DNA from: Longimicrobiales bacterium
Lineage (GTDB): Bacteria; Gemmatimonadota; Gemmatimonadetes; Longimicrobiales; Gaopeijiaceae
Direction: 5' to 3'
Assembly (NCBI GenBank): GCA_965248195.1
Contig: CBDFIQ010000002.1
Location: 928,001 to 992,000 of the forward strand
DNA: 64,000 nucleotides
Shown here: piece after piece, positions 61,409 to 63,799 of the stretch
How the letters are laid out: every line of letters begins with the position of its first letter
Numbering within the stretch: position 1 is the stretch's first letter
Made by a program: the position numbers and the translations under genes
Notes under the pieces: model-generated
The model's database searches: none
Told to the model about the DNA's origin: nothing
The model's input: only the letters and a program-made list of their open reading frames with translations

Positions 61409-63799
61409 GTGCGGCGCGTCCTGATCACCGGCGCCGCCGGCTTCCTTGGCTCTCATCTGGCCGACCGCTTCCTGACCGAAGGGTACGAGGTCATCGGCGT
61501 CGACAACTTCGTCACGGGATCCCGGCGAAACATCGCCGCCCTCCAGAAACGCGAAGGCTTTTCGTTTCTGCGCCACGATATCTCCACGCCGCTCTACGTG
61601 GGTGCAGAGTTGGACGGCGTCCTCCACTTCGCCTCTCCGGCGAGCCCGGTGGACTACCTGGAACTGTCGATCCAAACGCTGAAGGTCGGCAGCCTGGGCA
61701 CGCACAACATGCTCGGGCTCGCTATGGCGAAGTCGGCGCGCTTCCTGCTGGCCTCGACGTCGGAGGTGTACGGGGATCCGGAGGTTCATCCGCAGACCGA
61801 GGACTACTGGGGGAACGTCAATCCGGTCGGGCTCCGGGGCGTGTACGACGAGGCCAAGCGCTTCGCCGAGGCGATGACGATGGCGTATCACCGCTACCAC
61901 GGTGTGGATACGAGGATCGTGAGGATCTTCAATAGCATCCTTGCCGACGAAACCGTGATTCTCTTCAACGACGCCACGGCCCACATCGAAGCAGTGGAGG
62001 ATTACTTCAAAGAGGCGTCCGGCAGTCCCCTGGTCGTGCGACGTCGTATGCGAGTTCCGGCGTTCAATCCGCAGACGCTTGAAATCGAGCTTCGAGAGGC
62101 CGACGCCCTCATCAAGCACCCCTCACTCGGCAAGGACGCATTTCGGATCGTCACACGGTACGGAAGACACATCCGCGTCACGGGGGACCACAGCCTCTTC
62201 CGGCGGGATTCTGATCATCTGCCCGAGGCCGTGCCGGTTCGAGACCTGAAGGTGGGCGACTACGTCGCCATTCCGGGGCGGCTCCCGGTTGTGGAGCGTG
62301 ACGTCGAGTACGTCGATTTGGCCGAGCACCTGATCCGGAAGTCCGAGTCGGACGAGAGCCTTTGGGGCTATGCCCTCGTTTTTCCAGGTGTGAGGCCGGT
62401 GCTCGAGCGGTACAAGGAGGAGATCTTCGACTTTCTCTTGGAGAGCCCGCGTTTCGAAGGAAGCCGGAGTAAGCGCAACACGGTCGGCTGCGTGTGGCGG
62501 AGCCTTAAGAAGAAAGGGAAGATCCCACTTTCGGTGATGGCTCGCCTACATCGACGGTGCGGAGTCGCCTGGCCCCAGGACGCAGTGATCCAGCCTCATG
62601 TGGGAGGTGGAACCGCGATCCCATGCCGGATTCCGCTGACCGACGATCTCTTATGGCTCCTGGGGTTGTTTGTTGCCGAAGGCTGTCACGTCGATTCGAA
62701 GGGGACCTACCGCCTGCTCCTGTCGTCGGACGACGAGTTCTTGGATCGTGCCTGCCAGATCTTCAATTCCTGCTTTGGTGTGAATGCCCGCAAGCTCGAG
62801 GCGACGATGGAGCGGTGTCCTACTCTTTACGTGGACTCGAAGGCGATCTTCTGCCTCTTCGACCGGGTGTTTCAGGTTACGGGTGCCTCGAGCGCCATCC
62901 GAATCCCTCCATGGATTTTCCAGCTTCCGCTGTCCCGGCTGAAGCACTTTTTGGAGGGGTACAGGGAGGGCGACGGTACGCACACTGGCTATCCGGAGTG
63001 CCGCGAGCTCGCGTTCAACACGGTGAGCGACGGGCTCGCGACGGACCTGAGCTACCTTCTGCTACGCTTCGGAATCGTCGCATCGGTGGGGCGCTATGAG
63101 ACGACGTTCAAGAAGCGATACGGTGACCGGAAATTCCCCTTTTGGAGGCTCACGGTCTGTGAGGTGTCGGACTTCGACATCCTCACCTGGGACCAGGGGG
63201 TAGAGCAGCGCCTGAACGCCACCCGGACAGGTGACCTGGTCTGGGCGAAAGTGCGTAAGATCGAGGCCGTAGAGGCGTCGGAGTACGTCTACGACTTCAG
63301 CGTGGAGGGCTATGAGAACTTCCTCGCCGGCAACGGGGTGTTTGCCCACAATACGTACGGACCTTCCATGCGCCCCGCCGACGGCCGGGTCGTCTCGAAC
63401 TTCATCGTTCAGGCGCTCCGGAATGAGCCGCTCACGATCTACGGGGACGGCTCGCAGACGCGTTCTTTTTGTTACGTCGAGGATGAGGTGGACGGCATCT
63501 TTCGGCTGTTCCACTCTGACCGGATCGACCCGACCAACATAGGTAATCCGGACGAGTTCACGATCTCGAAATTGGCCGAGTTGGTGATCGCCGAGACGGG
63601 TTCACGCTCGGGGATCGAGTCGTTACCGCTCCCGGCGGACGATCCCCAGGTGCGCCAGCCCGACATTTCGGTGGCTCGTGAGATTCTCGGGTGGGAGCCC
63701 GTGACGACGCTCCAGGAGGGCCTGACGAAGACGATTCCCTACTTTCGCGAACTCGTGGAAACGGAGGACGCGCGAGCCCGGCCGCTGACCTCGGAATGA
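61409..63799 (+). CDS. uxs: UDP-glucuronate decarboxylase (UDP-xylose synthase) precursor containing an intein
   Basis: [76 protein letters not shown]; 323 aa after removing the insert. Confidence 0.93.
61934..63352 (+). mobile_element. Intein (473 aa) with LAGLIDADG homing endonuclease
   Basis: Starts SILADETV; block [18 protein letters not shown] and [10 protein letters not shown]; block [25 protein letters not shown]; +1 residue Thr. Confidence 0.95.

Follow-up and report, generated by a model that had tools for sequence, protein, structure and literature searches.

A predicted class 1 intein with a LAGLIDADG homing endonuclease at an already occupied site in the UDP-glucuronate decarboxylase gene of a Longimicrobiales bacterium

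The window, a 64,000-nucleotide stretch of a Longimicrobiales genome (G000), carries near its right end an open reading frame of 796 amino acids (61409–63799, + strand). By its sequence, this is the gene for a UDP-glucuronate decarboxylase (UDP-xylose synthase, UXS), predicted to form UDP-xylose and interrupted by an intein. The precursor consists of three parts:

61409–61933, + strand: N-extein of UDP-glucuronate decarboxylase, 175 aa, aligned with human UXS1 (hUXS1)
61934–63352, + strand: 473-aa intein, assigned to class 1, with a LAGLIDADG homing endonuclease, recognized by Pfam, TIGRFAM, PDB sequence and PDB fold matches
63353–63799, + strand: C-extein, 148 aa plus stop, aligned with hUXS1

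The insert is 1419 bp long, lies in frame from precursor residue 176 and splits the RIFN/TYGP motif. It starts with Ser, ends with His-Asn and is followed by Thr, exactly as the original prediction of a full-length intein in this enzyme had it. The rejoined exteins come to 323 aa, the product length that had been calculated.

The match of the extein halves to human UXS1 (E 1.7e-103) falls into two blocks, which meet at the junction. The Thr-Ser-Glu and Tyr-x-x-x-Lys motifs of UXS and its closing Arg are all present. Thr117, Ser118, Glu119, Tyr146 and Lys150 of the N-extein correspond to hUXS1 Thr118, Ser119, Glu120, Tyr147 and Lys151, and precursor Arg749, in the C-extein, corresponds to hUXS1 Arg277; these are the six residues named for the hUXS1 active site by Eixelsberger et al. 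(PMC3438964). Since Arg749 follows the intein and the other five residues precede it, the intein divides the active site. This uxs is the only close copy in the 91.8% complete assembly, and the other epimerases of the genome share at most about 33% identity with it over long alignments.

The genes ugd, gmd and fcl precede uxs in a long glycan-synthesis region, which also holds two NeuB genes, several UDP-GlcNAc 2-epimerase genes, a polysaccharide export gene (46196–48442) and another such gene that seems to be broken into two ORFs (53344–55805). Transposases of the Mutator family and the rve type lie within the region at 23411–24592 and 51940–52875. The gmd and fcl genes (58161–60974) are found between 310-bp, 95% identical copies of the 3' end of ugd (58161–58470 and 60975–61284) and have a GC content of 0.55–0.57 and a third-position GC of 0.64–0.68, versus a third-position GC of 0.83–0.86 for ugd and uxs. 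In the congener G085, ugd lies directly before uxs. The gmd-fcl pair has the appearance of a GDP-fucose cassette that was inserted recently. By PF14890, the genome has one other intein, a Cys1 mini-intein that interrupts ThyX, a flavin-dependent thymidylate synthase, and gives no endonuclease match (L002:982-2586; G000:C1 near 1152.5 kb).

The boundaries of the uxs intein are supported independently by relatives and by public sequencing runs: 28 of 30 fetched orthologous loci are uninterrupted at the site, and contigs in all four of the public runs (4/4) skip exactly 1419 bases there. The search for Hint-type splicing and endonuclease domains that had been proposed gave Pfam Intein_splicing (PF14890) at E 7.5e-22 and 78.2 bits, against a cut-off of 35.8, and LAGLIDADG_3 (PF14528) at E 3.9e-10, also over its cut-off. 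TIGR01443, for the intein C-terminus, exceeded its cut-off, and TIGR01445, for the N-terminus, scored 24 bits, just below its cut-off of 24.5. An AlphaFold2 model of the precursor, built from 115 sequences, has a mean pLDDT of 89.5, with residues 174–176 below 50. Its best fold matches are PI-PkoII (E 2.5e-29) and hUXS1 (TM 0.96 on the target, rmsd 1.6), and the intein fold also matches TliVMA and PI-PfuI. The modeled exteins together adopt the UXS fold, a predicted arrangement that speaks neither for nor against activity of the precursor.

A homologue search yielded 1194 matches among 7989 scored candidates, not all of them at the UXS site; the best 120 were examined, and the junction is visible in 114. 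The window intein and 111 of these 120 form an alignment of 112 rows, from which nine homologues were left out, seven truncated and two with a non-matching end pattern. The residues of the splicing domain are as follows:

61934–61936, + strand: Ser1, the first nucleophile; Ser in 114/114 homologues showing the junction
62114–62119, + strand: Lys61-His62, the NX motif of Ser1 inteins, aligned with the Arg-His of PI-PkoII and of the TFIIB intein 5o9i
62180–62191, + strand: block B with Thr83 and His86, both in 112/112 rows
63293–63295, + strand: block F position 4, Asp454, in 112/112 rows; class 3 excluded
63347–63355, + strand: His472-Asn473 and Thr+1, read from the sequence and the alignment

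Extraction of the 112 rows presupposed Ser1, and the unbiased count for this residue is thus the 114/114 among the best 120 homologues. Thr83 and His86, the TxxH block that had been noticed in the sequence, are invariant in the 112 rows, as are Asp454, Glu461 (block F position 13, Glu in PI-PkoII as well) and Asn473. Before the final Asn, 107 rows have His and five have Lys. At the NX motif, a Lys/Arg-His pair upstream of block B that Pasch et al. (PMC10189870) describe as a signature of Ser1 inteins, His is present in 95/112 rows and Lys or Arg in 102/112.

In terms of the class definitions set out in PMC4031507, class 2 (Ala1, Ser at G6, Cys+1) is ruled out by Ser1, His472 and Thr+1, and class 3, which has Cys at block F position 4, by Asp454. 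A BIL domain would have no +1 nucleophile; it is ruled out by Thr+1, and the insert interrupts a conserved enzyme. The intein is therefore assigned from its residues to class 1, in the Ser1 (oxyester) subgroup with Thr+1, and is predicted to excise itself. The combination of Ser1 and Thr+1 had been regarded as unusual, but it belongs to a recognized subgroup: PMC10189870 counts 58 InBase inteins with Ser1 and either Ser+1 or Thr+1.

The endonuclease and the segment before it have these features:

62309–62629, + strand: mostly helical segment of about 107 aa that separates the endonuclease from the N-terminal splicing region; without a match in Pfam
62651–62683, + strand: first LAGLIDADG helix, block C, with Glu249; Glu in 111/112 rows
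62948–62977, + strand: second LAGLIDADG helix, block E, with Asp347; Asp in 110/112 rows

The two helices that had been read from the sequence are thus present, and both acidic residues are kept in 109/112 rows. The helical segment has conserved Trp144, Cys186 and Pro198 and is likely an accessory DNA-binding domain. In block D, Ile322 occupies the position of a lysine in PI-PkoII, and since this lysine is replaced, nuclease activity may be reduced. Lys is found there in only 29/112 rows, and the adjacent Arg323 is kept in 101/112. Between the window intein and that of genome G248, dN/dS is 0.15 for the endonuclease, 0.09 and 0.06 for the splicing regions and 0.28 for the helical segment. The endonuclease looks intact and is likely to cleave intein-less alleles.

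The allele survey that had been suggested found both occupied and empty genes. Among 301 genomes of the order, the intein gives matches in 38, and these are full length in only four: the window genome, G248, G190 and G175, which belong to four genera. The other 34 genomes have weak partial matches, and the one that was opened proved to be an intein in gyrase B. The host gene, searched for by its N-extein, is present in 248/301 genomes, usually in single copy, and 244 of these 248 have no full-length intein match. (The unpublished genome G095, with the host gene and without a full-length intein, is counted as one row in each tally and enters no other result.) The 28 empty loci among the 30 fetched from the N-extein search include that of the congener G085. 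Because the host gene is usually single-copy, is present in 248/301 genomes and has a motif that is conserved even in the human enzyme, it is well suited to homing.

Contigs with the intein were also found in four public runs from four studies, and the same runs contain contigs that skip it. X1, likely the source run, has no differences from the window intein, X5 has 9 in 785 and X10 has 70 in 1552; X1 and X9 each hold two intein variants. The intein-skipping contigs, with 85% likeness, are probably from other species. An assembly artefact is ruled out by near-identical intein contigs in the runs of three other studies. In a search for a vehicle, five pattern matches were obtained among viral contigs, none of which was confirmed, and no intein match was found in phages or plasmids.

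Evidence of homing comes from comparing the window genome with G085 and G248. The exteins of G085 are 94% and 89% identical to those of the window gene. For G248, whose gene was read from L064, the exteins are 89% and 82% identical and the intein 88%. The inteins of G190, G175 and L065 are 63–68% identical to that of the window, below their exteins at 70–79%. At fourfold-degenerate sites, the window and G248 inteins differ at 66/228 positions (29%), as against 538/943 (57%) in six flanking genes (Fisher p 2e-14); this signal comes from one genome pair, with sites treated as independent. The C-extein (41/65) and the next gene (91/145) diverge at the background level, and transfer of the whole locus is therefore disfavored. 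Among informative extein sites, 123 side with G085 and 49 with G248. The intein value equals the background between the window genome and G085 (542/1674, p 0.33), so that the exchange would date to about the split of these two genomes or later.

Slow silent change in the intein is not favored as an explanation, since its third-position GC of 0.77 is below that of the exteins (0.86 and 0.80). The control pairs with G190, G175 and L065 gave values of 0.61–0.72, close to saturation, and test slow synonymous change only weakly. A co-conversion tract in the N-extein was also considered, as this extein is closer to G248 (37/87) than the flanks are (538/943, p 0.01). Against relatives with empty alleles, however, its divergence is about as low (0.45–0.59), and the tract was rejected. 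The nearest sites siding with G085 lie 27 bases upstream of the intein and inside the +1 codon. Co-conversion of the flanking glycan genes, which the original prediction had envisaged, is not borne out, as the neighbors diverge at background level. The comparison suggests that the intein likely jumped between bacterial genera recently. In G248, the ugd upstream of the intein-bearing uxs has a Cys1 LAGLIDADG intein of its own (L067:13355-15727, - strand), and the window ugd has none.

An alternative is that the intein splices while its endonuclease is already inactive, the element being a passenger that descends vertically, or travels with whole glycan loci as these change hands, and has been lost from most relatives. 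This would fit with the replaced block D lysine and with a copy at the same site in Trichodesmium erythraeum that no longer has either acidic residue, and the gmd-fcl cassette of lower GC between its 310-bp repeats, together with the IS elements in the window, would supply signs of such exchange. However, only the intein shows low divergence from G248, the C-extein and next gene being at background, while the endonuclease appears to be under purifying selection and its acidic residues are kept in nearly all rows. An inactive passenger is thus considered unlikely.

It is highly probable that the element is an intein of class 1 whose endonuclease looks intact, in a long-occupied UXS site; it is predicted to splice and likely spreads selfishly. 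In such a cycle, Ser1 would attack the peptide bond of Asn(-1) in an N-O shift aided by Thr83 and His86, the NX His62 and Asp454; Thr+1 would take over the N-extein; Asn473 would cyclize with the aid of His472; and an O-N shift would yield the 323-aa enzyme. The excised intein would then cut RIFN/TYGP codons that are still empty, in either a resident allele or an incoming one, and repair of the break would copy in the 1419 bp plus at most a few tens of flanking bases.

The intein might also have been domesticated as a conditional switch, an idea of the original prediction, in which stress-dependent splicing gates the supply of UDP-xylose and hence the surface glycan. The division of the active site between the exteins and the status of this uxs as the sole copy in the assembly would agree with such a role, as would the retention of two of the ten internal cysteines, Cys186 and Cys409, in 102/112 and 101/112 homologue rows. 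Neither of these is at a junction. However, there is no thiol at the Ser1 and Thr+1 junctions, inteins of this type can splice under oxidizing conditions according to PMC10189870, and most genomes with the gene (244/248) have no full-length match to the intein, so that a switch of this kind is extremely improbable.

The paralogous epimerases of the window had been proposed as related sites. A LegB-like dehydratase gene at 11587–12588 does have the full Asn/Thr-Tyr-Gly-Pro sequence, with Asn-1 and Thr+1 at position 12139 and 16/30 bases matching the uxs site, but the other paralogous stretches mapped in the window have Val or His at +1. Compared over the 30 bases of the rejoined site, 12 paralogous stretches match at 11–19 and the 28 empty orthologues at 20–27. 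Genome-wide, the intein has no match outside its own locus, and no paralogue contains it. With no intein there and poor site matches, homing into the paralogues of this genome is unsupported.

For distantly related inteins in other proteins, the 150 top-ranking of 3019 matches in 50%-identity representatives were surveyed. Some lie at the equivalent position of enzymes whose best NCBIfam matches, all below the curated cut-offs, are RmlB (P0124, P0132), GalE (P0128) and LegB (P0147, P0186). In P0177, which matches RmlB above the cut-off, the related intein lies two residues upstream. The inteins of P0166, P0177 and P0198 begin with Cys. Further members of the 150 are hosted by RadA, by a portal protein and by proteins without a name. 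Outside the epimerases, P0130, P0133, P0134, P0136 and P0146 are among the closest hosts of related Ser1 inteins; these are unnamed proteins that resemble P-loop ATPases and a phage portal protein, a hint that the wider lineage may have viral carriers. In genome G205, a protein named from its sequence as gyrase B-like (L008:1066-3768, - strand) has a related Ser1/Thr+1 LAGLIDADG intein with Arg-His at the NX position.

A broader scenario would make the Ser1/Thr+1 lineage an active cross-phylum invader of glycan genes, repeatedly retargeted to the equivalent codon of RmlB-, LegB- and GalE-like enzymes, with stress-dependent splicing, possibly through Cys186 and Cys409, switching cell-surface xylose where the sole UXS is interrupted. 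This combination is very unlikely.

The single element matters little, as its mechanism is textbook and its site is already in public annotation. The family, in turn, is a pool of more than a hundred Ser1/Thr+1 inteins with a junction chemistry sought for thiol-independent protein ligation, though the window copy has ten cysteines in its interior. In the trio of G000, G085 and G248, an allele with the intein, an empty one from the same genus and a candidate partner of the exchange come together; it would be a clean natural example of intein transfer across genera that left the neighboring genes behind. If splicing were conditional, intein regulation would extend from replication proteins to surface-glycan synthesis.

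Compared with human UXS1 (PDB 2b69, 4gll), the window enzyme has all six active-site residues in common. The human enzyme lacks an intein, and on it the insertion point falls at Asn176/Thr177. The first segment of its NAD domain (residues 4–181) ends five residues further on.

The insertion site itself is not new, which largely removes the novelty on the terms that the original prediction itself had set. It is occupied in over a hundred other protein clusters, with named records from Gemmatimonadota, Rhodothermus, Chloroflexota, Acidobacteriota, KSB1 and Cyanobacteria; carriers with both junctions include Rhodothermus marinus, Chloroflexota, Pyrinomonadaceae, Chloracidobacterium and KSB1. The intein is thus an ordinary, probably mobile element at an already occupied site. 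A counterpart with a public annotation is Tery_2478 of T. erythraeum IMS101 (ABG51687.1, Q111Y7; P0345), a UXS with two inteins that is annotated with “Protein splicing site” and COG1372+COG0451, and whose second intein is at the identical codon. The two inteins are presumably those listed in InBase as Ter Ndse-1 and Ter Ndse-2, the second being Ndse-2.

The second Tery_2478 intein shares with that of the window the same enzyme, the RIFN/TYGP site, Ser1, His-Asn, Thr+1 and a Lys-His NX motif, and the proteins are homologous throughout, with 33% identity over 646 columns, extein included. The Trichodesmium intein has lost both endonuclease acidic residues, whereas the window copy keeps both. 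Tery_2478 also has another intein just before the catalytic Tyr-x-x-x-Lys, while the window gene has one intein and is empty at that second site. UXS proteins with two inteins are P0028 and P0345 and, judged by length, P0037 and P0051. From the identical insertion point, the orthologous host and the homologous intein, the window intein is classed as an allele of the second Tery_2478 site.

Nucleotide-sugar enzymes of the same class are listed as intein hosts in the supplement of Novikova et al. (PMC4760082), with eight WcaG/COG0451 hosts in Cyanobacteria, two RfbB and one GMD, in line with the original view that such hosts are rare rather than unprecedented; ten UDP-glucose dehydrogenase hosts are also given, and T. 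erythraeum is marked intein-positive. The paper labels its COG0451 hosts GDP-fucose synthetase, and the rows consulted carry no insertion sites, but Tery_2478 is a COG0451 protein and we infer that the eight include the UXS site. A term search of PMC7765530, PMC2853384 and the supplement of PMC2807308 added nothing on the UXS site, and no paper describing it was found in a search that ran without InBase and most subscription journals and is not evidence of absence.

Among structures, the best PDB match of the intein is PI-PkoII (PI-TkoII, PDB 2cw7), both by sequence (E 2.6e-24) and by the fold comparison given above. The two differ in insertion site and in host, which for PI-PkoII is a Thermococcus DNA polymerase, and their identity in the structural alignment is 22%. 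PI-PkoII keeps the block D lysine, where the window intein has Ile. They share the Ser1 type, the NX histidine, the Glu at block F position 13, the two LAGLIDADG motifs and the inserted segment.
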